A stretch of 64,000 nt of DNA from Planctomycetota bacterium (GCA_965223845.1 CBDCXR010000004.1:7520001-7584000); one strand, 5' to 3'. Shown: positions 4,643 through 23,406, numbered from the stretch's first letter. Numbers and translations: made by a program. The notes: generated by a model not told the origin, from the letters alone.

Positions 4643-4692
4643 TTGGCCGACCGTGAGAGCGAGACAAGGAACCGGCCGAGACCTCAGGTGAG

Positions 4693-7600: not shown

Positions 7601-8481
7601 ATCGACTCTGCGTGCTCGCCTTCGGAAAGCTCGGCGGCGTCGAGCTCAACTACAGCTCCGATATCGATCTCATCGGAGTGTACAGCGGGAGCTCGAGTGA
7701 CGGCGCGGCGAGAGAGTTCGCTGCGGTGCTCTCGCGCCTCGCCACCGAGCTTTCACGCGCGACGGGGGAAGGGCGCATGTACCGCGTCGACTTCCGGCTG
7801 CGCCCCTACGGGCGAAGCGGCTCGCTCGTTTCGTCGATTGGGGAGCTCGTCGAGTACTACGAGAAGAAGGCGCGCCTCTGGGAGATTCAGGCGCTCCTCA
7901 AGCTCCGTCCGATCGCCGGCAACACGGACGTGGGGTACGAGCTCCTCGACGCGCTCTACCCGGTGCTCCGTCGGCCGCACGACCGGAGCGAAGTGACGGG
8001 GTCGATTCAGCGTCTGCGCGACGAGGCGGTGCGCAACACCTTGACGCGGTCGCTCGGCTCCGGGATCGACGTCAAGAACGGCACCGGCGGGATCCGGGAC
8101 GTCGAGTTTCTCGTCCAGGGCCTTCAGCTCGTCTCTCTCGCGCGTTCTCCGCGCGTTCTCGGTGGGAACACGCTCGAGGCCCTGTGTTTACTCGCCGACG
8201 AGGAGTTGATCGGAGGCGACATCGCCGCCGATCTCGCGGACGACTACGTGTTCCTTCGCCGCGTTGAGCACTACCTCCAGATTCTTCACGATCGGCAGAT
8301 CCACTCGCTGCCGAGTCGAAAAGAGGAGCGTGAAGCGCTCGCGCGCCGGCTTCAGATCGACGGCGCGGACGCGTTCACCGAGCGTCTCGACGCGTGTCTT
8401 TCTCGAGTCCACCGCGCGTACGTCCGCCACCTCTTCGGTGAGGGCACGGACTCAGGCCGCGAAGCCGGGGACTCGGTGTAG
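4693..8481 (+). CDS. glnE: Glutamine synthetase adenylyltransferase/removase with N-terminal ACT domains
   Basis: Two nucleotidyltransferase motifs (GKLGGAALGYASDIE; GKLGGVELNYSSDID) and two DxRLRP motifs. N-terminal GlnD-like ACT repeats. Divergent from glnA. Confidence 0.9.
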   Translation: MKPRRQQLQTLCPDVDAEFIAQHLRRLDEEYFERFPLDRVTRHLSGLASLSPSKPAEVLVEFGASGGVECTVLAFDYPSEFSLVTGVLFAMGLSIRSGDVFTYRAEDEAPTAAVRGRRPGRPRPPQKKSPLHRRRIIDHFVGVTDSDRPSTWGAEARTRLLEVITLLERGDPESVEAAKHRVNEMVTRRLAALDSSRYPVFYPAKLEIDDTVESATRLRVASQDTPAFLYAVSNALSLMGLAIQHVRIRTRDGQIEDEIDLVDPSGQPVRDPDLLARIQLSVLLTKQCTYFLDRAPDPYTALSRFEKLTESLLRLPQTGHWAELLSNPKVLKDLARILGASDFLWEDFIRMQYESLLPILTPHVGGERLSDPSTFVERLDAELENAETFEEKRAAVNRFKDREIFLLDLDSILSEDVDFRTFAEGLTSLAEAVVAASLDVISERLRERHGVPLGVADIETPWAMFGLGKLGGAALGYASDIELLLIYEGSGPTTGERPVSAAEYFSALMRELALFIQTKREGIFAVDLRLRPYGNSGPLASSLENFCTYYGPTGPAHPFERLALVRLRPIAGDPELGAQVTRLRDEFVYASGRVDFGALRDLRQRQYAEKARPGAYNAKFSPGALVDLEYTVQILQVVYAKDVAELRSPRIHVALEELGKRGLVDIDECRRLNAAYDFLRRLINGLRMLRGSAQDLFLPPADSDEFVHLARRIGYEPGELGAADQLQVDFQSHTATVRTFVEHYLGRASLPDPFAGNIADVILSGEPPEELWRPTLERAGFRDPERAFRNWLGLSSRGSRAEFARLAVLAADRLGGEPDADMALNNWERFVSSLDDPPAHFRQLRAQPQRLGILLGIFSRSQFLAETLIRRPEEFDWITAAETLREAPSARRHRSALRRVSSSCDGAGERLDAIRRYRQRELLRIGTRDMILGVDTASIMAELSVLADTIVQATLDEIWAEFGASGETRDRLCVLAFGKLGGVELNYSSDIDLIGVYSGSSSDGAAREFAAVLSRLATELSRATGEGRMYRVDFRLRPYGRSGSLVSSIGELVEYYEKKARLWEIQALLKLRPIAGNTDVGYELLDALYPVLRRPHDRSEVTGSIQRLRDEAVRNTLTRSLGSGIDVKNGTGGIRDVEFLVQGLQLVSLARSPRVLGGNTLEALCLLADEELIGGDIAADLADDYVFLRRVEHYLQILHDRQIHSLPSRKEEREALARRLQIDGADAFTERLDACLSRVHRAYVRHLFGEGTDSGREAGDSV

Positions 8482-8525
8482 GCGACGAGGCGCCCGGGTC
8501 GCCGCCGCTGCGTCGACCCGAGGCC

Positions 8526-9032
8526 TCACTCTGCGAAGAACGTGTCCAGTTGGCTCTTTGCCGACTGCGAGAATTCCTGCCCGAGACCGGAGGAGCCGTC
8601 GTCATGGCGCTTTGCGATGTCGCCGAAGATCTCCTGCAGCTTCTCGGCGGCTTCCTTGGCGTAGAGCCTCACCATGCCGATCGTCGTCCGCTCGTCGAAC
8701 ACCGTCGCGAGAATCGTGCGGTCGCCGACCAGGGTGAGCTGGATGTTGTCTTTGCGTCCCTGATGGAACAGCACGGAGAACTCATCCTCACCGAGGAGGC
8801 GCGCCATCTCCCGAGTCGCGGCGTAGCTGCCGGCGACGAGCGCGGACACGGCCTGCATGTCGAAGTCGTCCGTGCTCCCGGCCTTCGTCACCAAGTGCCC
8901 TTCCTTATCGATGAGGATGTTGCACTTCGAGTCGGAGAGGTTCAGGAACTCTTTGAGGACGCCGTTGATCTTATCGATGTCATCCTTGTAGAAGACGAGT
9001 CGCTTCTCTCGGATGTTGTCACTGTCCGTAAT
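8526..9032 (-). CDS. mglB: MglB-like roadblock/LC7 protein (GAP for MglA), probable ATT start
   Basis: The frame is open from the stop at 9054 and reads ..LVFYKDDIDKINGVLKEFL..ILIDKEGHLVTKAG..LLGEDEFSVLFHQG..FDERTTIGMVRLY, matching Myxococcus MglB. SD AGGAGGT at 9041-9047. Confidence 0.88.
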   Translation of the reverse strand: MTDSDNIREKRLVFYKDDIDKINGVLKEFLNLSDSKCNILIDKEGHLVTKAGSTDDFDMQAVSALVAGSYAATREMARLLGEDEFSVLFHQGRKDNIQLTLVGDRTILATVFDERTTIGMVRLYAKEAAEKLQEIFGDIAKRHDDGSSGLGQEFSQSAKSQLDTFFAE

Positions 9033-9122
9033 AATGGCCCACCTCCTGAGCTCTCAATAGCTCGCTGTATGTTGACTTGTCGCTTCTTGGACCGAAGCGC
9101 CCGGCGAGTACACCCGCGGGTA

Positions 9123-10103
9123 TCACTTTCCGATGAACGAGTCCAGGAGACCGCTGAAGTAGAGGCCGGCCCCGGCCGCGGCGAGGAGCGCGACGGTGAT
9201 CGCAATCCAAAGTCCGGCGGAACTCTTCTGCTTCTTCTTCGGCGGAGCCTTCTTGGTCACAGTCGAACGGGCCGCGGCGCCGGTGCGTCGGCGCACGACC
9301 GAGTCGGCGCCCGCGGGAGCCGCACGTTGAATGGGCTTGACCCCAGGTGAGCTGGTCACCGGTTCGTTCATGACGGGGGCGCCCTGCGTCTGGGCCGCAA
9401 CGTTCGGCGGCTGCGGACGAGTCGGAGCCCCGGCAGCGGGTGCCGCAGCGGCACCGACGGCCACGGCTTCGCGCTGCGGCTGCGCTTGCTTCTTCGGGAC
9501 TCGCACCGCGGTGGAGCTCTGTTGCCGGTTGAGGTTCTCGAGAACCATGGCCGAGAGCTTCTTGAGGGTCGGGAACACGCCCTCGCCCGTCACGGCAACC
9601 GCTTCGAAGTACGGTGATCCGAGGGGATTCAGCTTCTGCTCGAGCTCGGGGACGTCGTAGACGTCGGGGAGATCTCGCTTGTTGTACTGAATGACGAGCG
9701 GGAGCGTCTGGACGTCCATCCCGTACTCCTCGAGGTTCTCCATCAGGTTGGAGAGCGACTCGAGGTTCTCATCCATCTTCCCGCGCCGAGAGTCGGCGAC
9801 GAAGACGATCCCGTCCGCGCCCTGAAGGACGAGCTTCCGGGTCGAGTTGTAATAGACCTGACCCGGGACGGTGTAGATTTGAAACTTCGTCTGCATCCCC
9901 GCGACCGAGCCGAGGTTGAGGGGCAGGAAGTCGAAGAAGAGCGTGCGGTCGCCTTCGGTCGCAATCGAGGTCAGCTCTCCAACGTTGGTGTTCGGAGCCT
10001 TGCTATGAATGACCTCGAGATTGGTCGTCTTCCCGCTCAACCCAGGACCGTAGTAAACGATCTTGCAGTTGACCTCTTTGAGGGCAAAGTTGATCTGTAC
10101 CAT
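9123..10103 (-). CDS. mglA: MglA-family small GTPase with low-complexity linker, polybasic patch and C-terminal TM helix
   Basis: G1 GPGLSGKTTN, TEGDRTLFFD (Arg finger), TVPGQ, NKRD. About 130-aa extension ending KKAPPKKKQKSSAGLWIAITVALLAAAGAGLYF. Confidence 0.92.
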   Translation of the reverse strand: MVQINFALKEVNCKIVYYGPGLSGKTTNLEVIHSKAPNTNVGELTSIATEGDRTLFFDFLPLNLGSVAGMQTKFQIYTVPGQVYYNSTRKLVLQGADGIVFVADSRRGKMDENLESLSNLMENLEEYGMDVQTLPLVIQYNKRDLPDVYDVPELEQKLNPLGSPYFEAVAVTGEGVFPTLKKLSAMVLENLNRQQSSTAVRVPKKQAQPQREAVAVGAAAAPAAGAPTRPQPPNVAAQTQGAPVMNEPVTSSPGVKPIQRAAPAGADSVVRRRTGAAARSTVTKKAPPKKKQKSSAGLWIAITVALLAAAGAGLYFSGLLDSFIGK

Positions 10104-10133
10104 CGCTTGTGTTGCTCCAGTCCGTCCCTACGG

Positions 10134-10484
10134 CTACGCGATTTGACGGTTTTGGATATCGTCCATCGCCTGCTCGATCGCCACGATTCGGCTGGCGATC
10201 TGTGTGTTCGGTTGAGTGACGACGACCAAGAACGCCTTCTGCATGTCGAAGAAAACCAGCTTGCCTTTGCTCGCGTTGAGCGTGCAGTACGTGAAGCCGC
10301 TCGTCACTTGCAACTCGCCGAGACCTCGCTTGAGAGTGACGAGGAGCGACGACGCGAACGCCGCCACCGATTCTTCCTCGAGGTCTCCGCCGAGTTCCGA
10401 GGCCACCATGATCCCGTCGGGAGTGATGACCATGCTCCCGAGCAGGTCGGCGTCACGATTCAGTTTGTTGAGGATGGTGCGCAT
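10134..10484 (-). CDS. Roadblock/LC7 domain protein (MglB/MglC-like)
   Basis: 116 aa; LLGSMVITPDGIMVAS roadblock signature; immediately upstream of mglA. Confidence 0.85.
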   Translation of the reverse strand: MRTILNKLNRDADLLGSMVITPDGIMVASELGGDLEEESVAAFASSLLVTLKRGLGELQVTSGFTYCTLNASKGKLVFFDMQKAFLVVVTQPNTQIASRIVAIEQAMDDIQNRQIA

Positions 10485-10514
10485 GATTGTTTCGGCGAAG
10501 TTCCCTGAGCTCGC

Positions 10515-11594
10515 TCAGAGCGCCCGAGCCTCCTGAAGAACGCCGTCCACCTCTTGCTCCAAGGCCTCACCGTGGGGGTATCCGTCGAAGAAGCCGACGA
10601 TTCCCACTTGATCGGACTGTCGGATGAGGACCTGCCAGCCTTCGCCGCAGATGCGACACGACTCGAAGTCGCCGATTCCGATTCTCGACGCACCCTTGGC
10701 GCAGGTGCGCAGCATGCTTTGGGCCGCCTCATTCGAGCTGCCGAACTCGAATTCGTCCTCGGCCAGGATGGCTTTGTTAAGGAATTCGCAGCCGGCGTCG
10801 AAGACGAACACGCCGCTCGCGCCGTCGATGTCTTGAGTCTGTTCGATGACGGACTCGGCGATCGTCGCCGCGTCCTCCGCCGTCTCGTCGTCCGCCGGAC
10901 GCGCCGGAGCGGCGAGATCCGGGCCCGCTCGACTGTCTTCCCGCAGCGCGCGCTCGATATTGCCGAGGAGCTGAATCCCCTTCGGGTCGTTCGGATAAGC
11001 GTCGAGGAGCGCGTGCGCGATCTCCTGCGCGAGCTCGAGATCGCGCGTTCGCGCGAGCATGAGTCCGAGGAGAAGGAGCGTATCGTAGTTCTGAGGCTCC
11101 ACCTGGTACGCCTCGTCGAGGTGCAGCAGGGCGGCTTCCTGGTCGTTTTCGTCCTGCGTCTTGCCGAAGCGATGGAAGTGCAGCTTCCCCAGAAGCAGGT
11201 GAGTCTGCCAATCGTCGGGAAACAAGCGCTCGGCCTGACGAGCGTAGCGCCGAGCGCGCCGGAAGTTCCCGGCCGCGCAGGAGAGATCACAGGCCTTGCC
11301 GAGCAGTCGCTGGGTCGCCGACTTTCGGACGAGGCGAGCGATTCGCTTGAGCGCGCGCGCCGCGTGTCGGCTCTTTACGTCGTCTGCGACGCGCCCGATC
11401 GCTTCGTCGTTCGGAAACCTCCGACGCGCATCCGCCATCAGTTGCACTGCCTTCAGCCCGTGGCCGTGCTTGAGCAGCATGCGCGCAGCGCGGATCGAGT
11501 TCGCGGGTGACGGCTCGTCGCGGTACCGGGCTACGGTTTTCCGAAGCTTCCGTCGACTGGCGGCGCTGAAGAGTTTCGAAACGAGGCCGATCAC
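10515..11594 (-). CDS. TPR-repeat protein with C-terminal roadblock-like domain
   Basis: TPR helices (WQTHLLLGKLHF, YDTLLLLGLMLA, DPKGIQLLG). C-terminal IDGASGVFVFDAG...RIGIGDF pattern. Confidence 0.65.
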   Translation of the reverse strand: MIGLVSKLFSAASRRKLRKTVARYRDEPSPANSIRAARMLLKHGHGLKAVQLMADARRRFPNDEAIGRVADDVKSRHAARALKRIARLVRKSATQRLLGKACDLSCAAGNFRRARRYARQAERLFPDDWQTHLLLGKLHFHRFGKTQDENDQEAALLHLDEAYQVEPQNYDTLLLLGLMLARTRDLELAQEIAHALLDAYPNDPKGIQLLGNIERALREDSRAGPDLAAPARPADDETAEDAATIAESVIEQTQDIDGASGVFVFDAGCEFLNKAILAEDEFEFGSSNEAAQSMLRTCAKGASRIGIGDFESCRICGEGWQVLIRQSDQVGIVGFFDGYPHGEALEQEVDGVLQEARAL

Positions 11595-11756
11595 GTTGAC
11601 AATCTCGTAAGCGGGAGTGTGAACAGAAAAACGAAGCGGAACGACTCGTAAAAAGTGCGTTCGAATCGAGGATAGGATGGGGGTGGGAACGGCGCAAACG
11701 ACGCGCCCCCACGGCCCGATCTTGTGTGTTTTGGGAAGTTGAAGTCCGTTAGTCGC

Positions 11757-14700
11757 TCAATCGAGCGCGGTGACGAAGAGCGCGTTGTTCACGGAGCCGA
11801 TGCAGAATCGGCCCTTGTGGACTTCACCCGGTGCCAAGAAGCGAACCTTGTCCTTCGTCGAGTACTGCCAAAGCCGCGAACCGCTCCCGCAGTCGTACGC
11901 GAGCACGCGACCGTTCGTGGTTCCGACGATGAACTGATTCTTGAAAATGATTCCCGACGCCGCGACGGGGTCGGAGAGTTCGATCGACCATCGTCGTTCG
12001 CCGGAGTGCGAAAAGCAGTGGAGCTTTCGATCGGTCGTTGCGACGACGACGGAGTCGCTGTCGGCCGTCGGCGCGGCTGCGACCGGCGCATTCAATTCCT
12101 CGATCTCCCAAAGGAGCCGTGCGCTCTCGAGATCCGCGCAGCCGAGCACTCGGTCGTCGGATATGAAGTAGATCTTGTCGCCGCGAACCGTTCCGGGAAA
12201 ACGCACGCTTCCGCGTCGCGGAGCGACGAAGGATTCGACGTTTCCGGTCGTCGCCGAGATCGCGAGGATCCCGCCAGATCCCGTCAATACGTGGATCCGA
12301 TCTCGGCGCACGAGCGGTTTTCCGAGGAGTGGCCGCGCGCGGTAGGTTTTCGTCCAGAGCTTCTTTCCGGCGGCGATGTCGATCGCCGTGATCGATCGAC
12401 CCCCACCGTTGAGGAACGTGATTCCGTCGCTCGTGACCTGCGACGGGCCGCCGCGGATGGGCAACATGTCCTTCGTCGTCGAAATCTCCGCGACCTCGCG
12501 TCCCGTCACCGCCGAGAGCACGTAGAAGGATCCCGACTGAGTGCCGAAGAGGACGAAGTTCTTCCAGAGTGTGATCTCGCCCGTCACGTCCATGCTGTAG
12601 GCGACGTGGTAGGACCACACCTCTTTCCGTTCGTTCAAATCCACGCAGTAGACGTAACCGTTGCGAGTCCCGAAATAGCCTCGACCGTCGCGAGCCGTGA
12701 TCGGCGTTTCGATGCTGCCGCCGACCGGAAAGCTCCAGTAGGTGTCCTTAACGAGCTCGAGTGCGAGCCGCGGCGTGCTCAGAGGGTCGAACGGACGACC
12801 GTCGACCGTGCTTCTCTCGAGCTCGATCGGCTTGTACCCGTCGCGGCGAAGTACGATATCGGGGGCGGAGTCGCGCGGATTGAGAAGGATCGCGTGAGGT
12901 GTCCGTCCGACGCGCCGACCGTCGACGATGATGTCCGCGTCGGGCGGCGTCGTTTCGATGTAGATCGGGAGCTGCACCGTCTTGCTCTCGACGGCGTTCG
13001 GATAGTGGTAAAGAAGCGCCTTCCGAAGTTGGTGGCACTTAGCGAAGTCGCCTTCGTCGAAGGCCGTCTGGGCGGCGCGCTCGTACTTGGCGGCCTTCCC
13101 GAGGTAGCTCTTGATCCTCTTCTCGAGCGCGACGGCCTCACCCCGTGTCTTCTCCGATAGGTGATCGAAGTCTAGCGAACGGAGGATGCCGATCGATTCA
13201 ACGTATTTGTCGTTCTTGAACGCGATCTGGGCTCGAGTGTACTCCGCTCGCGTCTTGAATCGCTGCTCGCTCGCGAGCTTCTTCTGTCGCTCCCGTGCAT
13301 CGGCCTCGCGTTGGTCGAGCTCGCGGAGGAGGGCATGGGCCTCGCTCTGCGTAGTGGAGAAGCGGAATCGTTGGGTGAAGTCCTCGAGCGCTTCGCGGGC
13401 CTGATCGAAGTCGGCGAGCTCTGCGAGTCGGTGGACCGTGCTCTTCACGTCCGCGAGCGTCGTTCTCGACTGGTGCTCGTGGATGCCCCACAAGGATCCG
13501 AACCCGAGCAGGACTCCGATGAAGAGCATGATCGCGACGACCTTCACGCGAATCTTGCGCGAAGTCTTCGCTCGTCGCTCGACCTCGACGGCGCGCTTCA
13601 GTCGCTGCGCCTCGGCGGGGCAGATCTTCGCGAGGCGTTCGCAGGTCTTGCGCAGGCGTGTGTGATCACGCCGTTCTTCGTAGACGGCGGCCGCCGCGAC
13701 GAAGCACGCGGCGGCGTCGTCGTCCTCGCCAGCGGCCGCGAGGGCTTCGGCGAGATCGTTGAGGATTCCGACTTCCTCGGGGTAGATCTCGACCACTTGC
13801 CGTGCGAGCTCAACGAGGATGCCGGAGTTTTCGGCCTTGACGGCGGCGGCGGTGAGCCGTTTCGCGGCTGCGATCGCCTCGCGATAGCGATCCTGGTTGG
13901 TCTGGATCGCGAAGAGGCTCCACAGCGCCTCGATGTGCTCTGGACAGCGTTCGAGGACTTCGTCCAGATGGTCGAGCGCCTTCTCGGTGTCGACCTCCTC
14001 GTTCTGTCGCGCGAGGTAGAGATGGTGATCGGCGATCTCGCTTGCCGGGCCCTTCGCCTTTCCGAGGAGCTGAATCAGCTTTTGCCGGACGGCGGTATTC
14101 CCGGGATCGTTGAGCAGAATGCTCCGGTAGATCCCTACGGCATCCTTCGGCCGGAGTGACTTGCGCAGCCGCTCGGCGAGCTCCTGCTTTTCTTCGAGCT
14201 GAAGCGGCCGGATCGCTCCGGACGTGAGGAGCTTCGCGAGCAACTCGTAGATTTCGAATCGCGAAATCGTCGAGTTGTCGACGATCGAATGTACCGAGTG
14301 CTCACCCCGGAGATAAGGCGCGACTGCGCTCACGAGCTCGCGAGAAAGCGCGGGGTCGTTGAAGGCCTGGGCGGCCGTCTCGGTCGCGACGTAAATCTCG
14401 GTATCCGAGGGGATCACCTGCTTCAGGCGTCCCCACTCGTCCTCGCGGCGAACGGCCTCCATGAGGATGCTGTTCGCATTGAAGATCAGAACTTCGCCGA
14501 GCTGGTCGGGATTGAAGAGCTCGTAGTCCGTCGGATCCTCGCCGGCGAGGAATTCGTACTTGAGCTTCGGGATGAGAAAGATCTCGAAGAGGAAATCCTC
14601 GAGCTGCTTTCGAAGCTCCGTTTCGACGACGCTCCCCTCGATGATTCGCCGGCTGATGAGAAATTCACCGGGATAGGACGAGCCGGGAACCCACGTCGAA

Positions 14701-14933
14701 AAGGCGTTCGTAAACTGCTGGTCCGTGAGAACCTTCTGCTTGAGCAACACGCGGCGGAGAAGATCCGGCGACTTCGCCTGGGTATTCAGCGGGCGAATTC
14801 CCACCGAAAGGATGAAGAGTCGCGCCGCGAACTCGTCGCCCTCGAGCGTCAGGATTCCCTCCTGGCCGTTCATCATGAGGGCCTGAACAATGTTCGAGAG
14901 CGGAATCTGATCTATGTCGCCGCGAAATGCCAC
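11757..14933 (-). CDS. DUF4388-TPR-TM-PEGA-PQQ beta-propeller membrane protein
   Basis: N-terminal FRGDIDQIPLSNIVQAL...GILTL (DUF4388-like); TPR region; TM VVAIMLFIGVLLGFGSLWGI; PEGA IETTPPDADIIVDG..GRTP; repeated G..W propeller blades. Confidence 0.78.
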   Translation of the reverse strand: MAFRGDIDQIPLSNIVQALMMNGQEGILTLEGDEFAARLFILSVGIRPLNTQAKSPDLLRRVLLKQKVLTDQQFTNAFSTWVPGSSYPGEFLISRRIIEGSVVETELRKQLEDFLFEIFLIPKLKYEFLAGEDPTDYELFNPDQLGEVLIFNANSILMEAVRREDEWGRLKQVIPSDTEIYVATETAAQAFNDPALSRELVSAVAPYLRGEHSVHSIVDNSTISRFEIYELLAKLLTSGAIRPLQLEEKQELAERLRKSLRPKDAVGIYRSILLNDPGNTAVRQKLIQLLGKAKGPASEIADHHLYLARQNEEVDTEKALDHLDEVLERCPEHIEALWSLFAIQTNQDRYREAIAAAKRLTAAAVKAENSGILVELARQVVEIYPEEVGILNDLAEALAAAGEDDDAAACFVAAAAVYEERRDHTRLRKTCERLAKICPAEAQRLKRAVEVERRAKTSRKIRVKVVAIMLFIGVLLGFGSLWGIHEHQSRTTLADVKSTVHRLAELADFDQAREALEDFTQRFRFSTTQSEAHALLRELDQREADARERQKKLASEQRFKTRAEYTRAQIAFKNDKYVESIGILRSLDFDHLSEKTRGEAVALEKRIKSYLGKAAKYERAAQTAFDEGDFAKCHQLRKALLYHYPNAVESKTVQLPIYIETTPPDADIIVDGRRVGRTPHAILLNPRDSAPDIVLRRDGYKPIELERSTVDGRPFDPLSTPRLALELVKDTYWSFPVGGSIETPITARDGRGYFGTRNGYVYCVDLNERKEVWSYHVAYSMDVTGEITLWKNFVLFGTQSGSFYVLSAVTGREVAEISTTKDMLPIRGGPSQVTSDGITFLNGGGRSITAIDIAAGKKLWTKTYRARPLLGKPLVRRDRIHVLTGSGGILAISATTGNVESFVAPRRGSVRFPGTVRGDKIYFISDDRVLGCADLESARLLWEIEELNAPVAAAPTADSDSVVVATTDRKLHCFSHSGERRWSIELSDPVAASGIIFKNQFIVGTTNGRVLAYDCGSGSRLWQYSTKDKVRFLAPGEVHKGRFCIGSVNNALFVTALD

Positions 14934-15052
14934 CGCTGGCTCCTGGGGTGTCGCTGATCGGTTGGGTGATTCGGAGTCGTCTGCTCCGAGGTGTCGACGT
15001 CGTGCTCAGGCACCGTCGTTCTTTGGAATCTGGTTTGAGGAATCGGTCGCGC

Positions 15053-16345
15053 TCAAGTTCTCTTGATCACCATCGCCGTGATGTCGTCTTCCTGCGGAGA
15101 GCCGCCCGTGAACGCGCGAACGGCGGTTCGAATGCGGAGAAGCACGTCGTCGGCGGACCACTCCGAGGTCACGTCCTTCAGATCGAACGCGAGGCGATCG
15201 CGTCCGTATTGAACGCCGCGGGGTCCGCGGGCCTCGGGGAGACCGTCGGTGAGAAGAACGAGAAAGCTGCCGTGGGGGAGCGTGATCGTGCGTTCTTCGA
15301 GCACGTCGCCGAGTCGGACGAGCGCGCCGAGGCCGAGGGGCGCACCGCGCGAGTCGATGCTCTCGAGCGCCGGAGTGTCGGGCGAGAGAACGAGGGGGTG
15401 CTCGTGTCCCGCCCGCGCGAATGCGAACGCCCCGGACGATAGCTCGAGGATGCCGTAGAGGGCGGTCACGAAGCTGCCCTTGTTGAGGTCGTCGCTGATG
15501 TCGCAGCTCGTCCGGCGGAGGACTCGCGCCGGCGACGGATCACAGTCGTCCGTCGCGCGAAGCTGGAGGACCTTGCGCGTAATCCCCATGAGAAGCGTCG
15601 CCTCGACGCCGTGCCCGACGACGTCTCCTACGCAGAGACCGACGTGATCGTCGTCGAGTGCGATGTAGTCGAAGAAATCCCCTCCCACCTTCTCCGACGG
15701 CTCGTAGAGATGAGCGAACTCGTACCCGGCACGTTCGGGGGGAGTCTGCGGCAGGATCGCGGCGACGCATTTCGCCGTCGCGTCGAGTCCCTTCTCTAGG
15801 TGCTCGGAGCGCCGGAGCGAGTGCACGAGCGTCTGCACTTTCTGAGTCGGCGTCGTCGACGCGTCGTTCTCGATCGCGGGCGGCGGCGGCGCGGCGGCGG
15901 ACGGCTCCTCGGGCGACGAAATCACGGCGTCGCCGTCGACGATGTAGTAGTCCTCGATCGATCCCGTGAGCTTGAGCCGATCGACGAGCTCGTTCGACGG
16001 ACTGTAGAGCGTCATCGAGCGATCGCGGGCCTTGCTCTCACGGCGGATGCTGCGCAGGAGGCTCAAGAACTTCGCGTCGAGCCGAGCGGAGCGGTCCTTC
16101 TCGACTTTGAATTCGCTCAGATCGAGCCCGAGGTGACCGGGCCATTCCCGCGCCAGGCGATCGAGCTTCGCGGCGAGCGGGGGAGAGTAGAGCCCCGAGA
16201 CGACGATCAAGCAGAGATCGCCTTTGGTGCTCTGACGCACCTCGGCGTCTTTGAAGGAAAACACCGTGGTGACGATCTCATCGCCGTCTTCGAGAAGATC
16301 TTTCCACTGGCTCGGGCTGAGGGCGGTCTTCACGTCGTGACTCAT
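15053..16345 (-). CDS. STAS-like domain + SpoIIE/RsbU-type PP2C phosphatase
   Basis: VGGDFFD, GDVVGHG, AGH, TDGL, DDIT. N-terminal STAS-like (LDLSE...LSLLRSIRR...VDRLKLTG). Confidence 0.85.
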   Translation of the reverse strand: MSHDVKTALSPSQWKDLLEDGDEIVTTVFSFKDAEVRQSTKGDLCLIVVSGLYSPPLAAKLDRLAREWPGHLGLDLSEFKVEKDRSARLDAKFLSLLRSIRRESKARDRSMTLYSPSNELVDRLKLTGSIEDYYIVDGDAVISSPEEPSAAAPPPPAIENDASTTPTQKVQTLVHSLRRSEHLEKGLDATAKCVAAILPQTPPERAGYEFAHLYEPSEKVGGDFFDYIALDDDHVGLCVGDVVGHGVEATLLMGITRKVLQLRATDDCDPSPARVLRRTSCDISDDLNKGSFVTALYGILELSSGAFAFARAGHEHPLVLSPDTPALESIDSRGAPLGLGALVRLGDVLEERTITLPHGSFLVLLTDGLPEARGPRGVQYGRDRLAFDLKDVTSEWSADDVLLRIRTAVRAFTGGSPQEDDITAMVIKRT

Positions 16346-16809
16346 AGATGCTTCTCGTCGCGGCGCGTTCGCCGAGCGAGTACGCCGTTCGGGGAGATCG
16401 GGTTTGCGATGCAATGGGTCGGGGAGCCCGGAACGCTGGGAGGGGCGCGAGCGCGCGTTCCGACCGCGCTCCGCGTGATGGAGCGAGGGCGAGACCGTCC
16501 AGGCATCGGAGTATATTTGGCTCCGAAGCGACCGGCACGCGGCGCGGCGTTATCGGTTGCTACCCGGCGCGTCGGCCGAGATATCGGTTGCGAAGGCCGC
16601 GGGTTCGGCGCGTCGGGGAGGCGTCCGGCGCGCCCGTTGCACGACCCCCATCGCTCCGGCCGAATGTTGTTCCGCTTTCGGACGGCTGCTACCATCCGTC
16701 CAAGATCTGAACGCAAGCTCTTCGGCCTTCGGCGCGCCGCCGCGAACCGCGTGAGAGACCGCGATCGGCGAGGGGGCTCCGCCCGAGGGACCACGTCCGG
16801 AGATCGTCT

Positions 16810-17920: not shown

Positions 17921-18440
17921 CGGTGGTGAATCATCTCGGAAGACGTTGGCAGCCTGTAGGATAGAACGAGGGCGCGCCGCTCGCCCGCACGGCGGCGACG
18001 TCGCTTGCGTTCTCCGTGAGGGTTCGTTTCGGCTCGCGTTCCGCGCCTCCGCTCAAGGGTCTCAACACGAGCGGGACTGCCGGAGTGGATCGGCGTATCG
18101 CCGCGGTTTCGTTTCCGAGGGTCCCCCCGCGGTTCCCCGCACGGTCCCGGAACGGAGACCGGCTCGACGCGACCGCCTGAGTCCCCACGCACCTCGTCCC
18201 CATCCGAAGCGTCCGTCCCGCGTTCCGTCCCGTTCCTTCGAGCGGCTCGCCTTCACAACGGGCACTGTTCTTCGCGCACCTTTGCTGCGGATTCCTCAAG
18301 ATCCTTAAATTCCATCCAGCGCACGCAGATCGTACGGCCGTGCCGATGGTTCGACTGAGTTTCAGTGGAACCTCGACATGCGACACGGCATCGGCGTGTG
18401 CACCTCGATGCTCGTCGCACGCCGAGTAGGAGACTCTCTG

Positions 18441-20120
18441 GTGAACAAGAAGTCTGTCGGGCAGATCCTCAAGGCCATGGGCGCGGTCGACGAAGACCAG
18501 ATCGATCGAGCGCTTCAGTTCGCCGAGGCGAACGATCTGCGCATCGGCGAGGCGCTGCTCAAGCAGGAAAGCTGCTCTCAGGAGCAGCTCAGCCGTGCTC
18601 TGAGCAAGCACTGGGAGGTGCCGTTCGCGAATCTCTCGAAGGGTGAGATCAAGCAGGAGATCGTCCAGCTCGTTCCGAAGGACGTCGCGCTCGAGCACAA
18701 CGTCGTCCCCGTCACGAAGAAGGGGAACACGCTCTACGTGGCGATGGCCGCGCTCGACCTGATGGTGCTCGACAACCTCAAGTTCCTCCTCAATCAGGAC
18801 GTCGAGGCGGCGATCGCGACGCCGAAGGACATCGAGGAAGCTCTCGATCAGTACTACCGGCTCACGGGCAATTTGAGCGAAGTCATCGGGGACGAAGACG
18901 GCGTCCAAGTCGGTCGCGACGAGTACGCGGGCGAAGATGCCGACGCGAACGAAGGGCCGGTCATCAAGTACGTGACGCAGCTCATTTCAAACGCGCTCAA
19001 GGAGCGCGCGAGCGACATTCACGTCGAGCCGTTCGAAAAGCGCGTTCGCATCCGGTATCGCGTCGACGGAGTTTGCGTCGAAAAGGAAAACCCGCCGAAG
19101 AAGCTCCAGGGCCCCATCCTCTCCCGCATCAAGATCATGTCCGACATGGACATGGCGGAGAAGAGGCGGCCGCAGGACGGCCGCATCAAGATCCATCTCC
19201 ACGGTCGTGAGATCGACCTCCGCGTGTCCGCGCTCCCCGCGCGCCACGGCGAGAGTATCGTCATGCGGATCCTCGACAAGGAGAAGAGCCTCGTCGATCT
19301 CGAAGAGCTCGGTTTCCACGAGACGGACTACAACCGTTTCGAAAAGATTATCAAGCGCCCGAACGGAATCTTTCTCGTTACGGGACCGACCGGTTCGGGA
19401 AAGACGACGACGCTCTACGCCGCGCTGAAGAAGCTGAATCGTCCGGACGTCAAGATCATCACCGCGGAGAACCCGATCGAGTACAACCTCACGGGAATCA
19501 ACCAAGCGGAAGTCCGCCACGAAATCGGGCTCACGTTTCAGCGCATCCTCCGCGCCATGATGCGACAGGCGCCGAATATCATCCTCGTCGGAGAGATTCG
19601 CGACCGGGAGACGGCGGACATCGCGATTCAGGCCGCGCTCACCGGTCACTTGGTGTTCAGCACGCTCCACACGAACGACGCACCGGCGGCGCTCACGCGT
19701 CTCATCGATATGGGCGTGAAGCCCTTCCTCGTCGCGTCGGCGGTCATGGCGGTGATGGCGCAGCGGCTCATCCGCATGCTCTGTCCCGATTGCAAGCAGC
19801 CGTACGAGGCCTCGGACACCGAGCTCCGGCAGGTGGGCATCACGCGCAATGAATTCGACAGCGGATCCCAGCTCTTCGAGGCGAAGGGCTGCCCGGCGTG
19901 TAACGGTCAGGGCTACCGCGGTCGCCGCGGCGTGTACGAGCTCATGGAGCTGAGCCCGGATCTCCGCGAGATGGCGTTCGAGCAGAAGCCTACTCAAGAT
20001 CTGCGGGTGAAGGCGCGCGCCGAAGGGATGACGACGCTCCAGGAGGACGCGGTCCGGAAGGCGCTCGCGGGGCGGACCACGCTTTACGAAGTCCTCCGCA
20101 TCACGCACCGCGCTGACTAA
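18441..20120 (+). CDS. pilB: Type IV pilus/T2SS assembly ATPase (PilB/GspE), paralogue 1
   Basis: ASDIHVEP, PQDGRI, GPTGSGKTTT, ILVGEIRD, TGHLVFSTLHTND, CPDC/CPAC Zn motif, MshEN-like N-terminus. SD AGGAG before GTG. Confidence 0.92.
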   Translation: MNKKSVGQILKAMGAVDEDQIDRALQFAEANDLRIGEALLKQESCSQEQLSRALSKHWEVPFANLSKGEIKQEIVQLVPKDVALEHNVVPVTKKGNTLYVAMAALDLMVLDNLKFLLNQDVEAAIATPKDIEEALDQYYRLTGNLSEVIGDEDGVQVGRDEYAGEDADANEGPVIKYVTQLISNALKERASDIHVEPFEKRVRIRYRVDGVCVEKENPPKKLQGPILSRIKIMSDMDMAEKRRPQDGRIKIHLHGREIDLRVSALPARHGESIVMRILDKEKSLVDLEELGFHETDYNRFEKIIKRPNGIFLVTGPTGSGKTTTLYAALKKLNRPDVKIITAENPIEYNLTGINQAEVRHEIGLTFQRILRAMMRQAPNIILVGEIRDRETADIAIQAALTGHLVFSTLHTNDAPAALTRLIDMGVKPFLVASAVMAVMAQRLIRMLCPDCKQPYEASDTELRQVGITRNEFDSGSQLFEAKGCPACNGQGYRGRRGVYELMELSPDLREMAFEQKPTQDLRVKARAEGMTTLQEDAVRKALAGRTTLYEVLRITHRAD

Positions 20121-20246
20121 ACGCAAGCGAGTCGATTCTCGACTCGATGCACCTTTCCACGGGCTGCCAAGGCTGAATCGAAGTAGCAACGAACCCAAGA
20201 CAACGACCCCGAGCGCTCGATCGCCTCGGGTTCGGGAGACCGCACC

Positions 20247-21944
20247 GTGCTGAACAAGAGACTCGGACAGATTCTGAAGGAACAGGGCGTCGTCTCCGAG
20301 TTCGACATCCAGGAGTCGCTGAAGAAGCAGAAAGAGAGCGGGATGGCTCTCGGTCAGATTCTTCTCGAGAACAATCTGGCCAACGAGGAGCAGCTTCAGC
20401 GCGCGCTCGCCGCGCAGGCGGGGATGGAGTTCGTCGACCTCGCCACGTCGGAAATCGTCCCCGAAGTCATCGAGCTCGTCGACCCGACGACCGTCGAGAC
20501 CTTCCGCGTCATGCCGGTCGAGTACGACGGGACGACCCTCACGGTCGCGATCGCGAAGCCCGACGCGATGAACATGCTCGATGACCTGCGGTTCAGCCTG
20601 CCGAAGATCGACAACTTCAAGATGGTCGTCGCCGGTGAGGAGGCGATTCAGGCCGCGATCGAGAAGTACTACCAGGACGGCGCTCGCGGAATGGACGAGC
20701 TCTTCGGCGGAGAGGGCGGCGGCGCCATCGGCAAGGAGCGCGAGAGCATCGACGCCGCGCAGCTCGAGGCCGACGCGAACGCGGCGCCGGTCGTCAAGCT
20801 TCTCAATATGATCCTCCTGCAGGCGATCCGCGATCGCTCGGCGGACATTCACCTCGAGCCGTTCGAGCACGAGTTCAAGGTGCGCTACCGCGTCGACGGC
20901 GTCCTCTACGAGATGATGCCGCCGCCGATTCACTTGGCGCGCGCGGTGATCTCCCGCGTGAAGGTCATGGCGAATCTCGATATCGCCGAGACGCGACTGC
21001 CGCAGGACGGGCGCATCGAGCTCAACATCGGCGGGAACCCGGTCGACCTTCGCGTGTCGACGCTGCCGACGATGTACGGCGAGAGCGTCGTCATGCGAAT
21101 CCTCGATCGTCAGAACCTCGCGCTCGACCTCGAAAAGCTCGGCCTCCGTCCCGAAGAGCTCAGCACCATGCGGAAGCTCTGCGGGAAGCCGAACGGGATC
21201 GTGCTCGTCACCGGCCCGACGGGAAGCGGGAAGACGACGACTCTCTACTCCGTGCTCCACGAAGCCAACGACATCGGCGTCAAGATCATCACCACCGAAG
21301 ATCCCGTCGAGTACGACCTCGAAGGAATCGTTCAGGTGCAGATCAACGAAGAGATCGGAACGACCTTCGCCGCGTGTCTGCGCAGTATCTTGCGCCAGGA
21401 TCCGGACAAGATCCTCGTCGGTGAGATTCGCGATCTCGAGACGTCGCAGATCGCGGTCGAAGCCGCGCTCACCGGTCACATCGTCTTTACGACCCTTCAC
21501 ACGAACGACGCGCCGTCGGCGGTCACGCGAATGCTCGACCTCGGGCTCGAGCCGTTCCTCATCACTGCGTGCCTCGAAGGAATCATCGCCCAGCGGCTGG
21601 TTCGTCGCATCTGCCTCGATTGTAAGGAAGCCTACGACCCGACGGACGAAGAGCTCTACGAGCTCGAGCTCACCCGATCGGGAATCGAAGGTCGGACCTT
21701 TTACTACGGACGTGGCTGCAAGAAGTGCAACAACACCGGGTACAAGGGGCGAATCGCGATCTTCGAGCAGTTCATCATGAACGACCGGCTGCGGGACATG
21801 ATCATGAACGCGGCCTCGACGGCCGAGCTTCGAGCCGTGGGAAAAGAGAGTGGAATGCGCACCCTGCGTGACGCCGGGCTGCTCCATATTTACGACGGCG
21901 TCACGACGATCGAGGAGGTCGTCAAGGAGACGATCACTTCATGA
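20247..21944 (+). CDS. pilB: Type IV pilus/T2SS assembly ATPase (PilB/GspE), paralogue 2
   Basis: RLGQILKEQG MshEN, GPTGSGKTTT, EDPVEY, LRQDPD, TLHTND, CLDC/CKKC. Confidence 0.92.
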   Translation: MLNKRLGQILKEQGVVSEFDIQESLKKQKESGMALGQILLENNLANEEQLQRALAAQAGMEFVDLATSEIVPEVIELVDPTTVETFRVMPVEYDGTTLTVAIAKPDAMNMLDDLRFSLPKIDNFKMVVAGEEAIQAAIEKYYQDGARGMDELFGGEGGGAIGKERESIDAAQLEADANAAPVVKLLNMILLQAIRDRSADIHLEPFEHEFKVRYRVDGVLYEMMPPPIHLARAVISRVKVMANLDIAETRLPQDGRIELNIGGNPVDLRVSTLPTMYGESVVMRILDRQNLALDLEKLGLRPEELSTMRKLCGKPNGIVLVTGPTGSGKTTTLYSVLHEANDIGVKIITTEDPVEYDLEGIVQVQINEEIGTTFAACLRSILRQDPDKILVGEIRDLETSQIAVEAALTGHIVFTTLHTNDAPSAVTRMLDLGLEPFLITACLEGIIAQRLVRRICLDCKEAYDPTDEELYELELTRSGIEGRTFYYGRGCKKCNNTGYKGRIAIFEQFIMNDRLRDMIMNAASTAELRAVGKESGMRTLRDAGLLHIYDGVTTIEEVVKETITS

Positions 21945-22170
21945 CGAATCGCCTTCGGGCGGACCGAAAATACCGGACTCGACCGGACGCCGCCGCAAGG
22001 GTTGAGGTGGATGTTCAAGTCGGCCGACCTCCACTTGGCAGTGGAGTCTCTGATGGATACGATGAATGCCGGTCGAGCGGTTTCGCAGCCGGCCATCGAA
22101 CTGTGATACGGATTCAGCAGCGCGCATCGGGTGAGTCCGGGTGGCTGAATCTCGAGACTAAGGAGGGAAC

Positions 22171-23406
22171 ATGCCCGTCTTCGCCGTAGAAGGCATCGAT
22201 GCGAACGGGCAGAAGGTCAAGAAGGACATTGACGCTGCGTCGAAAGACGCCGTCGTCAAGCAGTGCAAGTCCGCCGGCCTTCGTCCGACTCGTATCTCCA
22301 TGAAGGCGCGGTCCGCCGCGAAGGGTGGCGCCGACGCCGGGAAGAAGAAGGGCGGGAAGGTCCTCTTCGACCGGGTCAAGCACGCCCAGATCGTGACGTT
22401 CACGACGCAGCTCTCGACGCTGCAGGACGCGGGCCTTCCGATCGTCCGGAGTCTCAAGATTCTCGGGGAACAGCAGAAGGCGGGAAAGTTCCGCAATACG
22501 CTCGAGAGCATCGCGGATGAAGTCGAGCAGGGAAGCACGTTCTCCGAGTCGCTGAGCAAATTCCCGAAGTGCTTCGACAAGCTGTACGTGAGCATGGTGA
22601 AGGCCGGCGAGGCCGGTGGCGTGCTCGACGTGATCCTCAACCGCCTTGCGACCTTCATGGAGAAGGCGGAGAAGATCAAGAAGAAGGTGAAGGGCGCGCT
22701 GATCTACCCGATCGCGGTCATCATCGTCGCCGTTCTCATCGTCGCCTGCATCATGATCTACGTGGTGCCGTCCTTCGAAAAGATGTTCGCCGACATGGGG
22801 CAGTCGCTCCCGGCGCCGACTCAGTTCCTCCTCACGTGTAGCGAGCTCGTCCGGAAGTGGTGGTTCCTCCTTCCCGGGGTTCCCTTCGTCTTCGTCGTCA
22901 TCGTGAAGTGGATTGGATCCCGGCCGAAGGGCCGCGTGATGATCGACCGGGCGAAGCTGAATATCCCCGTCTTTGGGATGATCATTCGCAAGTCGTCCAT
23001 CTCCCGCTTCTGCCGTACGCTCGGAACGCTGATCGCGTCCGGCGTCCCGATCCTCGAGGCTCTTCGTATCGTGAAGGACGCGGTCGGGAACGTCGTGATC
23101 GGCAACGCGATCGAAGAAGTCCACGGCAGTATCCGTGAGGGCGACACCGTTGCCGAACCGCTCAAAAACTCGGGCGTGTTCGACGAGCTTCTGATCAACA
23201 TGATCGACGTCGGTGAGGAAACCGGCGAGCTCGACAAGATGCTGATCAAGATCGCCGACAACTACGAGGCGGACGTCGACGTTGCGGTCGAGGGTGTCTC
23301 GAGTCTCATCGAGCCGATGATTATTGTCGGCCTCGGCGGCGTGGTCGGATTCATCGTGATCTCGCTGTTCCTCCCGCTCATCGAGATCATCAAGGGCATC
23401 AACTAG
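22171..23406 (+). CDS. pilC: Type IV pilus inner-membrane platform protein (PilC/GspF)
   Basis: FTTQLSTLQDAGLPI, AGEAGGVL, ALIYP, VGEETGEL, LIEP; three TM segments. Confidence 0.93.
   Translation: MPVFAVEGIDANGQKVKKDIDAASKDAVVKQCKSAGLRPTRISMKARSAAKGGADAGKKKGGKVLFDRVKHAQIVTFTTQLSTLQDAGLPIVRSLKILGEQQKAGKFRNTLESIADEVEQGSTFSESLSKFPKCFDKLYVSMVKAGEAGGVLDVILNRLATFMEKAEKIKKKVKGALIYPIAVIIVAVLIVACIMIYVVPSFEKMFADMGQSLPAPTQFLLTCSELVRKWWFLLPGVPFVFVVIVKWIGSRPKGRVMIDRAKLNIPVFGMIIRKSSISRFCRTLGTLIASGVPILEALRIVKDAVGNVVIGNAIEEVHGSIREGDTVAEPLKNSGVFDELLINMIDVGEETGELDKMLIKIADNYEADVDVAVEGVSSLIEPMIIVGLGGVVGFIVISLFLPLIEIIKGIN

Follow-up and report, generated by a model that had tools for sequence, protein, structure and literature searches.

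A conserved gene cassette predicted to encode a membrane-anchored MglA GTPase switch in a planctomycete, and its possible link to type IV pili

In Myxococcus and Thermus, MglA and MglB form a polarity switch of a GTPase and its GTPase-activating protein (GAP), which in Myxococcus directs type IV pili, and the known MglA proteins are, to our knowledge, soluble single domains. We analysed a 64,000-nucleotide stretch of a Planctomycetota genome assembly (GCA_965223845.1; hereafter the window), for which an original prediction had described six co-oriented genes of a planctomycete at positions 8526-16345. All six ORFs were found on the minus strand, their domains mostly supported by Pfam, in the order STAS-like/PP2C, PATAN (DUF4388)-TPR-TM-PEGA-propeller, TPR-roadblock, roadblock, MglA and MglB, and the closest relatives of the organism were Planctomycetota MAGs. 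The reading that we favour, at a probability of roughly 0.5, is that this cassette is a conserved, co-inherited MglA/MglB switch in which MglA would reside permanently at the cytoplasmic membrane, joined by a further pair of roadblock domains and by a PATAN protein as trans-envelope anchor, and that it most likely steers type IV pili.

The locus had been put forward as the best candidate for an undescribed system in the window, which holds in part. The available text of PMC4316618 already reports PATAN-MglA/MglB gene neighbourhoods, with PATAN "occasionally" near group 1/5 mglA, and the accessible part of a Synechocystis preprint (bioRxiv 10.1101/2021.06.11.447907) also notes a PATAN-mglA/mglB neighbourhood; in the module of the window, by contrast, the PATAN-mglA link is fixed, and no published description of a membrane-anchored MglA or of a fixed five-gene module was found in the portions of the literature available to us. 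The Streptomyces conservon (CvnA-D) likewise combines, in a multi-gene cassette associated with the membrane, a roadblock protein with a GTPase of the MglA family (PMC4316618, in its available text). However, the conservon contains a histidine kinase, CvnA, together with CvnC and a group-2 MglA, whereas the MglA of the window is assigned to group 1 and carries its own predicted anchor, and Pfam found neither a kinase domain nor a CvnC-like gene among the six cassette proteins.

The mglA gene (9123..10103, minus strand) encodes 326 aa with an Arf/Ras/Gtr1-type G domain by Pfam, laid out as a group-1 G domain (1-196), a variable P/A/S/T-rich linker (~197-285), a polybasic patch and a C-terminal TM helix. 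Group 1 is defined, in the text of PMC4316618 available to us, by TVPGQ at G3 instead of DxxGQ and by an intrinsic arginine beside the G2 threonine. Judged by its motifs, the GTPase is a true group-1 MglA, because it combines TVPGQ and the arginine finger with a match to Myxococcus MglA at E 9e-68: phmmer aligned residues 3-193 with M. xanthus MglA 5ymx_A (E 8.9e-68) and also matched T. thermophilus 3t12_A (E 1.1e-67), T78-V-P-G-Q82 and D52-R53-T54 were invariant in 20/20 aligned sequences, and the NKRD motif was invariant among the aligned orthologues. The alignable G domain, TVPGQ, the arginine finger and an adjacent MglB roadblock gene with a C-terminal helix are all shared with Myxococcus and Thermus. 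The soluble MglA chains in the PDB, however, have 195-203 residues, so that the 326-aa protein lies outside the single-domain format of ~195-200 residues, its extra C-terminal part of about 130 residues (197-326) comprising linker and TM helix; a further difference from those systems is that the cassette also has, as fixed members, a PATAN membrane protein and two additional roadblock domains. The membrane tail anticipated for MglA is real in the sequence, where polybasic KKAPPKKKQK is followed by a hydrophobic stretch of 23 residues, LWIAITVALLAAAGAGLYFSGLL (residues 298-320; 9144..9212, minus strand), and then by six further residues. This tail-anchor helix was conserved in 20/20 aligned orthologues. 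Across the wider set, 70/70 complete MglA ORFs extended into tails of 110 residues or more, and 60/70 had a TM-like C-terminal helix (KD19 of at least 1.6); in 7/70, of which four came from Zixibacteria-labelled MAGs, a polybasic-aromatic end replaced the helix, with a net charge of +7 to +12 in 6/7, and the amphipathic-helix score of this C-terminal patch was not above that of shuffled sequences. That a functional module with a membrane-bound MglA is real we hold to be highly probable.

Gene order, whose loss had been named beforehand as one result that would speak against the original prediction, was compared among 20 related and 80 wider loci. The order PATAN - TPR-roadblock - roadblock - MglA - MglB was kept in 17/20 related and 51/80 wider loci, many loci without the full five-gene order being contig ends. 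The small roadblock, MglA and MglB genes occurred together in 20/20 related loci, of which 17 also had the PATAN gene, and of the wider loci 78 had the small roadblock gene, 76 the TPR-roadblock gene, 68 mglB, 60 the PATAN gene and 51 all five; in three loci (L112, L113 and L124) the PATAN gene had moved downstream of mglB with linkage retained. With gene order conserved across so many genomes, this arrangement goes far beyond what chance would give. The PP2C gene behaved differently: it lay immediately upstream of PATAN in 11/20 related loci and was present in 2/80 wider loci; the conserved unit is five genes, with STAS-PP2C a lineage-specific sixth, and the expectation of conserved order was borne out for the five and not for PP2C. 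From sequence comparison, the co-inherited parts are an anchored group-1 MglA, an MglB homologue, two paralogous roadblock domains and a bitopic PATAN-TPR protein. One could still hold that the six genes are merely adjacent, without related functions, and that an annotation or read-through artefact accounts for the MglA tail, as would suit a STAS-PP2C gene that is not conserved outside its lineage, yet this is contradicted by synteny across phyla, by genes that overlap or are separated by very short gaps and by a tail found in every complete MglA ORF examined, 60 of which terminate in the TM helix, and we give it hardly any credence. In the related loci, intergenic distances between the PATAN gene and mglB were -4 to 250 nt, and the gap between PP2C and PATAN was as long as 425 nt. 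A search for a promoter-like site for the cassette returned none. Flanking genes at the other loci were housekeeping genes.

MglB (8526..9035, minus strand; 169 aa) has a roadblock domain (Pfam Robl_LC7, 3.5e-8, 43.7 bits) and a C-terminal helix, and matched M. xanthus MglB 6izw_B at E 7.2e-34 over query residues 12-169, the C-terminal part included. Against the NCBIfam equivalog NF052242 it scored 90.7 bits, below the cut-off of 200, with profile positions 3-160 of 161 covered, and identity across the class was 63-92%. By analogy with Myxococcus and Thermus, MglB dimers would switch MglA off as its GAP. The gene begins 87 nt downstream of mglA. An ORF lister had placed its start at TTG 8894, which was rejected in favour of ATT 9035, six bases past a Shine-Dalgarno AGGAGG (9042-9047; with the 6-nt spacer, 9036..9047, minus strand), as the N-terminus so defined was conserved in 20/20 relatives; upstream of the ATT there is an in-frame TGA at six codons with no ATG, GTG or TTG between. 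GGAGG with ATT or ATC occurred at mglB in 10/21 sequences, and the other 11 had ATG, GTG or TTG at the identical position. Such a weak start may keep MglB scarce relative to MglA.

The three roadblock domains of the proposed membrane-tethered, Ras-like module were all recovered, MglB being accompanied by a single-domain roadblock/LC7 protein (10134..10484, minus strand; 116 aa; Pfam Robl_LC7 1.3e-7) and by a TPR-roadblock fusion (10515..11594, minus strand; 359 aa) with TPR at 1-222, a linker and the roadblock at 236-358. Pfam matched TPR alone in the fusion and no roadblock; the AlphaFold2 model (pLDDT 92) has alpha-beta-beta-alpha-beta-beta-beta-alpha at 236-358, with Foldseek matches to MglB 6izw_C (TM 0.66), MglB 6h5b_B and the Asgard roadblock 7yh1_A (TM 0.77). 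With hhalign the fusion aligned to the small roadblock at 97.7% (E 2e-12), and the small roadblock aligned more weakly to MglB (83.9%, E 7.8e-6); on these comparisons the small protein is a paralogue of the C-terminal domain of the TPR protein, distinct from MglB, and no chain named MglC was among its 18 PDB matches at E <= 1. At one locus (L115) the TPR and roadblock parts were separate genes. The pair may form a second platform, either an exchange factor or an MglB/MglA adaptor; a role as GEF is put forward only tentatively.

From MglB to Ragulator, roadblock dimers provide platforms for GTPases (PMC10933270, in its available text), and two paralogous roadblock domains besides MglB, together with an MglA whose linker, polybasic patch and anchor mimic Ras/Rab C-termini, would also suit a eukaryote-like membrane-identity system, in which an anchored GTPase and a Ragulator-like heterodimeric roadblock platform organise planctomycete membrane invaginations or uptake sites rather than motility organelles. 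The likeness to Ras/Rab is one of analogy, with no homology of the tails claimed, and in place of their lipid (prenyl) anchor the MglA-type GTPase has a TM helix or a polybasic-aromatic patch. No coat, SNARE-like or dynamin-like genes occur in the cassette, and the module is near-universal (80/81 genomes) in the phylum of genome G417, labelled Zixibacteria, where it lies in a pilus operon; this phylum is not known to have endomembranes, and we consider the membrane-identity system quite improbable. A broader proposal, which seems to us unlikely, is that Planctomycetota and Zixibacteria share an ancient eukaryote-like membrane GTPase system, in which a hypervariable linker, a basic patch and a membrane anchor would hold MglA permanently in place, a Ragulator-like heterodimeric roadblock GEF would switch it on, an MglB dimer would switch it off and a trans-envelope PATAN receptor would position it, and which in planctomycetes would define membrane domains or poles generally (budding, uptake sites, pili). 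MglA was found in 220/401 sampled Planctomycetota genomes. The 7.9-Mb genome of the window has a single MglA, within the cassette, and only two Pfam-detectable roadblock genes, both inside it.

The PATAN protein (11757..14933, minus strand; 1058 aa; AlphaFold2 pLDDT 88) had been predicted as the trans-envelope component, and its architecture supports a bitopic protein with PEGA and propeller outside. Pfam matched DUF4388 (1.4e-11), TPR and a PQQ_2 propeller (1.8e-27), with a PEGA match just above threshold (2e-4; 21.6 bits versus a cut-off of 20.8). On the cytoplasmic side lie PATAN/DUF4388 with a helical insertion (1-245) and TPR (246-455), and a single TM helix (residues ~463-484; 13482..13547, minus strand) is followed by an outside helical region, a PEGA sandwich (655-735) and a beta-propeller (746-1056). 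The helix, located by a hydropathy scan, is preceded by six K/R in 12 residues; in 44/48 orthologues its best 19-residue window occupied identical alignment columns (492-504), with KD of at least 1.6 in 42 of those, and orthologues had 3-8 K/R just ahead of it, which places the N-terminus inside and the C-terminus outside. The PF14332 score of 45 bits exceeded the cut-off of 25, with 164 residues (4-167) aligned to profile positions 1-121, and the alpha-helical insertion, also a feature of PixE/PixG/PatA-type regulators, forms helices at 57-118 in the model. In contrast to PatA-type regulators, which join PATAN to a receiver, PATAN here forms the cytoplasmic head of a TPR-TM-PEGA-propeller protein in which Pfam found no receiver domain. 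The outside domains would fix the module at one envelope site.

As originally predicted, a pilB-pilB-pilC cluster (18378..23406, plus strand; by Pfam two MshEN+T2SSE ATPases and a T2SSF platform protein) lies close by; pilB starts at 18378, about 2.0 kb away from where PP2C starts, and a signal peptidase I gene in divergent orientation separates the two. Four genomes (G002, G003, G005 and G009) have the same cluster on the contig of mglA, at a distance of 12-15 kb, and pilB...pilC follows mglB directly in six of the seven polybasic-tail (Zixibacteria-type) loci (L115, L118, L123, L125, L128 and L130). From this gene neighbourhood we infer a link to pili, for which pilB-pilB-pilC, outside the cassette, is the candidate output machinery. 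In Synechocystis, according to the available part of the preprint (bioRxiv 10.1101/2021.06.11.447907), the PATAN domain binds the N-terminal domains of PilB1 and PilC, and because it binds both, PATAN/TPR may couple MglA-GTP to the pilus motor PilB/PilC. In that case the MglA switch would determine the site or the timing of type IV pilus formation; the odds that these pili are the output of the module seem to us about even, and the cassette probably controls the placement of surface pili or other polar structures.

The pilus neighbourhood in the window and in the polybasic-tail loci favours the piliation role first proposed, but it is not general: pilB was seen in 9/100 loci (8/94 after duplicate removal, within ~9 kb), in most planctomycete loci the surrounding ~9 kb contained no pil gene, and orthologues of the neighbouring PilC occurred in 41/41 related genomes, including all 13 without MglA, so that pili do not need the module. 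These observations would suit the same tethered MglA switch with an output other than pili, marking a pole or envelope site for budding, division-site choice, holdfast or stalk attachment, flagellum placement or Glt-like adhesion, with the PATAN-TPR-TM-PEGA-propeller protein itself as effector or anchor. The genome has about a dozen PATAN matches against one MglA, and PATAN proteins are thus not tied to a single machine; in M. xanthus, moreover, MglA-GTP acts through the membrane protein GltJ to drive a trans-envelope gliding/adhesion machine as well (PMC11135422, in its available text). Yet pilB/pilC adjoin the module in two distant lineages, the only tested PATAN partners in the available preprint text are pilus-motor parts, and no division, flagellar or gliding genes recurred in the flanks of the examined loci, and we regard a non-pilus output as possible, if somewhat doubtful.

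Around the type IV pilus reading, the lineage-specific STAS-PP2C protein (15053..16345, minus strand; 430 aa from ATG 16345) would add a phosphorylation-dependent input in the lineage of the window. The two-part architecture proposed for it stood firmly for the phosphatase (Pfam SpoIIE 1.7e-40; PF07228, 139.4 bits) and more weakly for STAS, as STAS_2 (PF13466) reached only E 0.11 in the window protein (13.1 bits versus a cut-off of 29.2), and alignment of 10 orthologues showed no conserved serine at the usual STAS phospho-site column. Among these orthologues, STAS_2 was detected in 8/10 (best 3.6e-5) and STAS PF01740 in 7/10 (best 5.1e-6), and the metal-binding motifs GGDF, GDVxGHG, DG and DD (D223, D241, D367 and D420/D421) were invariant in all 10.

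The cassette consists of six co-oriented minus-strand ORFs bounded by the stop codon of mglB at 8526 and the ATG of the PP2C gene at 16345, lies in a window of ~64% G+C, and is flanked by a convergent glnE (4693-8481, encoding the 1262-aa GlnE adenylyltransferase) and a divergent signal peptidase I gene (16810-17718). Read from its upstream end, it comprises a PP2C phosphatase gene (15053-16345; Pfam SpoIIE/PP2C, E = 1.7e-40), the gene for a PATAN (DUF4388) protein (11757-14933), a TPR-roadblock gene (10515-11594) in which Pfam recognized TPR only, a small roadblock gene (10134-10484; Robl_LC7, 1.3e-7), mglA (9123-10103; Arf, Ras and Gtr1 G-domain matches), and mglB, placed by the ORF lister at 8526-8894 (Robl_LC7, 3.5e-8). 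Scanning 8300-17000 turned up no promoter-like site, where 0.8 would be expected; terminator-like sites numbered 13, against 7.4 ± 3.1, without any that convincingly divides the cassette genes; an Rfam search of 8000-18500 matched no family, and a repeat search yielded nothing bearing on the cassette. On one flank, glnA (glutamine synthetase, minus strand) and glnE span 2671-8481, the stop codons of the convergent mglB and glnE being 44 nt apart; on the other, three tandem 15-nt repeats (16906-16958) in the signal peptidase I gene encode repeated AERPA-like peptides within the N-terminal, non-catalytic region of its product.

The product of mglA aligned with M. xanthus MglA at E = 8.9e-68 (residues 3-193) and with T. 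thermophilus MglA at E = 1.1e-67, and its P-loop, D52-R53-T54, T78-VPGQ82 and NKRD were invariant across 20 aligned orthologues; group-1 MglA is recognized by TVPGQ and an intrinsic arginine according to Wuichet & Sogaard-Andersen (PMC4316618). Residue 196 is followed by a P/A/S/T-rich linker of low conservation; next come a basic patch (KKAPPKKKQK) and a hydrophobic helix of 23 residues, and six residues close the protein. By sequence this is the layout of a tail anchor, as expected of the membrane-tailed MglA originally proposed. The tail was also considered as a PEP-CTERM/sortase-type sorting signal and rejected as such, since the protein lacks a signal peptide and its basic patch precedes rather than follows the helix. 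Among the 80 loci of a wider set, each of the 70 complete MglA ORFs had a tail of at least 110 residues after the G domain, and 60 carried a TM-like C-terminal helix (19-residue Kyte-Doolittle mean ≥ 1.6), one further ORF scoring 1.59. At seven loci (L107, L115, L118, L123, L125, L128 and L130) the helix was replaced by a polybasic-aromatic patch with two to five aromatic residues and, at six of them, a net charge of +7 to +12; two MglA had neither device. We use this term and not amphipathic helix because the hydrophobic moment of these C-termini was not above that of shuffles (fractions 0.15-0.92), and for the same reason their binding to membranes is only plausible. We argue from these two unlike C-terminal devices behind a variable linker that membrane location of MglA is probably a selected trait. 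The window organism's 7.9-Mb assembly holds one MglA copy.

The gene set around this GTPase was found to be conserved. A full-length MglA match was present in 28 of 41 related genomes, the window's own included, and absent from 10/10 genomes of one small-genome genus among them. All 20 related loci had Robl-MglA-MglB together with an ORF of 344-460 aa between the PATAN gene and the small roadblock gene; a tblastn search with the window protein identified nine of these 20 ORFs, and the rest were located by position and then added to the profile, so that the profile scores of the latter are circular. The PATAN gene was present at 17/20 loci, one of them cut by a contig end, and the three loci without it belong to one genus. 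Intergenic gaps from the PATAN gene to mglB were -4 to 250 nt, and the gap between the PP2C and PATAN genes, where both were adjacent, 2-425 nt. The wider set comprised the best 80 of 584 relatives (MglA-alignment scan, one genome per species; six duplicate earlier loci), nearly all titled Planctomycetota MAGs with a few labelled Zixibacteria, Ignavibacteria, Nitrospinota or Acidobacteria. Profile searches of these 80 loci detected MglA in 80, the small roadblock in 78, TPR-roadblock in 76, MglB in 68, PATAN in 60 and PP2C in 2, and the five core genes together in 51, with at least 10 of the misses ending at a contig edge adjoining mglA. The order PATAN-TPR-Robl-Robl-MglA-MglB thus recurs in the synteny search that had been proposed as a check. 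At three loci (L112, L113 and L124) the PATAN gene lay downstream, not upstream, of mglB, with the same architecture at L113 and L124, the two scanned, and cut by the contig end at L112; the linkage therefore survives rearrangement. The PP2C gene stood directly upstream of PATAN in only 11/20 related loci, and the predicted six-gene module accordingly reduces to a conserved core of five with a lineage-specific sixth gene. Clustering of flanking ORFs returned only housekeeping families and antisense artefacts as recurrent. In Planctomycetota as a whole, MglA was detected at E ≤ 1e-50 in 220/401 sampled genomes and 160/277 genera, floor values from a stricter first look; it occurred in whole families and was missing from others (e.g. 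0/21 in one family). In the phylum of a Zixibacteria-labelled genome (G417), MglA occurred once each in 80/81 genomes, in open frames of 317-517 aa.

A further roadblock domain was found in the TPR protein. Its AlphaFold2 model (62 aligned sequences, pLDDT 92) consists of a TPR solenoid (1-222) and a C-terminal domain (236-358) of alpha-beta-beta-alpha-beta-beta-beta-alpha topology, for which Foldseek returned MglB structures 6izw_C (TM 0.66) and 6h5b_B and the Asgard roadblock 7yh1_A (TM 0.77). hhalign paired this domain with the small roadblock family (97.7%, E 2e-12) and the small roadblock with MglB at only 83.9% (E 7.8e-6), so that the cassette holds three roadblock domains of two kinds, the number first proposed. 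The only two Pfam-detectable roadblock genes of the genome are both in the cassette. A complex prediction of the small roadblock, the TPR-roadblock C-domain and the MglA G domain scored 0.00 (mark, 0.32) and counts neither way. Long open frames upstream of TPR-roadblock at L098 and L074, considered as a longer fusion, held TPR only.

The listed start of mglB, TTG 8894, is internal to a frame that stays open as far as a TGA at 9054-9056, and 47 conserved N-terminal residues are encoded upstream of that TTG. Translation starts instead at ATT 9035, which AGGAGG precedes at a spacing of six bases (minus strand, 9030-9047). The protein read from this codon aligned through residues 12-169 with M. 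xanthus MglB (E 7.2e-34); against the 161-position NCBIfam MglB model it scored 90.7 bits across positions 3-160, short of the equivalog cut-off of 200. An ATT or ATC start behind GGAGG occurred in 10/21 sequences (window and relatives), with ATG, GTG or TTG at the same position in the other 11. The ATT start (ATC/ATA in relatives) is kept in the window's clade (L031-L037, L046, L049 and L053); one wider locus had ATA, and most other wider loci a methionine near the aligned N-terminus. The codon choice suggests deliberately weak translation of MglB, and by analogy with infC this start could be IF3-sensitive. Standard ORF callers would shorten MglB by 47 residues.

The architecture predicted for the PATAN protein, DUF4388-TPR-TM-PEGA-PQQ propeller, held up in Pfam matches to DUF4388 (1.4e-11), TPR, PEGA (2e-4; 21.6 bits against a cut-off of 20.8) and PQQ_2 (1.8e-27), and in a model (48 aligned sequences, pLDDT 88) that placed PATAN with a helical insertion and a small domain at 1-245 and TPR at 246-455, followed by a long TM-bearing helix and, on the outside, a helical region, the PEGA sandwich and the propeller. 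The TM segment fell at the same alignment columns in 44/48 orthologues (Kyte-Doolittle ≥ 1.6 in 42) and is preceded by 3-8 K/R residues, which argues for a topology with the N-terminus in and the C-terminus out. The protein lacks a receiver domain and was rejected as a PatA-type regulator. The window genome has 14 DUF4388 matches, 12 of them above the cut-off; several matches lie in long open frames, of 1090, 974 and 877 aa and, for the two sub-cut-off matches, of 1209 and 1189 aa. One MglA switch may be shared by a family of PATAN proteins that act as anchors or adaptors.

The pilus genes noted in the original prediction were confirmed: two PilB-type ATPases (MshEN + T2SSE) and PilC lie 2-7 kb upstream of the cassette in divergent orientation. 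Both pilB genes are in tandem (18378-21944), each with an MshEN N-domain, followed by pilC, and no PilT-like gene was noted in the annotated part of the window, up to ~34.5 kb. In G002, G003, G005 and G009 (genomes of two families in the window's order) mglA and the same PilC orthologue share a contig at a distance of 12-15 kb; in G040 they are 56 kb apart. At the Zixibacteria-labelled locus L115 the order is comEC, PATAN (388 aa), a 121-aa ORF, TPR (274 aa), roadblock, roadblock, MglA and MglB, followed by PilB in two ORFs, a second T2SSE ATPase, PilC and a PAS histidine kinase. The two PilB ORFs (10770-12209 of that locus; MshEN, 158 aa, then T2SSE, 315 aa) represent either a split gene or an assembly frameshift. 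In all six polybasic-tail loci of this kind mglB is followed by pilB and pilC, and TPR and roadblock are separate genes, a split form of the planctomycete fusion. A preprint on Synechocystis reports that the PATAN domain alone binds the N-terminal domains of PilB1 and PilC and reverses phototaxis (bioRxiv 10.1101/2021.06.11.447907). Against a pilus link, pilB was found at just 9/100 loci (8/94 without duplicates), and PilC orthologues were present in 41/41 related genomes, including the 13 without MglA, which also made a PilC-MglA presence/absence correlation unusable.

With the parts list, gene order, anchor and topology signals established at the level of sequence, the function of the cassette can be inferred from gene context and family knowledge. 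MglB dimers would act as the GAP for MglA-GTP, and the roadblock/TPR-roadblock pair would form a second platform, which could be an MglC-like adaptor or, though less likely than not, a GEF. The PATAN protein would fix the module at an envelope site through its outside PEGA/propeller part and present its PATAN/TPR part to MglA-GTP and the pilus motor. Because such an MglA cannot leave the membrane, polarity would arise by local regulation or lateral diffusion, not by cytoplasmic pole-to-pole exchange. In the window's lineage the STAS-PP2C protein would supply a phospho-input. Its PP2C metal-binding motifs are invariant, so the phosphatase half of the predicted STAS-PP2C stood; the STAS half was weak in the window protein (E 0.11) and emerged in orthologues, 8/10 matching STAS_2 (best 3.6e-5) and 7/10 STAS (best 5.1e-6). 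The alignment had no conserved serine at the usual STAS phospho-site column, and an ESM Atlas search with the N-terminus gave no usable match.

MglA/MglB is the model for a Ras-like switch that sets bacterial cell polarity, with a soluble GTPase that shuttles between poles. The cassette's GTPase and GAP belong to the same families (MglA group 1 and MglB), yet here the switch appears membrane-anchored and part of a fixed gene set. Such anchoring would alter how the switch can move and signal, and provides a bacterial counterpart to eukaryotic Ras/Rab proteins, which are held at membranes by their C-termini. The cassette differs from a conservon, a reading ruled out by the missing kinase and CvnC and by the group-1 GTPase motifs. 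To our knowledge almost nothing is known of polarity and pilus control in planctomycetes, on which the cassette provides a handle, with testable candidate partners in two roadblocks, a PATAN trans-envelope protein and a phosphatase; the anchored MglA in its gene set is widespread, extending to about half of the sampled Planctomycetota and to almost every genome sampled from a second phylum. The view of the cassette as an undescribed system stood in part. Full-text searches revealed no account of a membrane-anchored MglA, the five-gene module or MglA in Planctomycetota, nor any literature on DUF4388 and roadblock together; the supplements of PMC4316618 may list such neighbourhoods. PATAN-mglA/mglB neighbourhoods, by contrast, are published: according to the main text of PMC4316618, group 1 and 5 mglA "occasionally" have PATAN genes close by, and for neighbourhoods of MglB and PATAN it refers to Makarova 2006. 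The list of group-1 phyla in PMC4316618 omits Planctomycetes, a word absent from that main text. The closest 120 homologues all came from MAGs or metagenomes. The name "MglA" appeared just twice among them, the other database names being "GTPase", "hypothetical protein" and "signal recognition particle receptor subunit beta". JGI annotation gives the last-named subunit for many long MglA proteins (P0014, P0016 and others), a likely misnaming that perhaps stems from an Arf-like G domain combined with a membrane segment.
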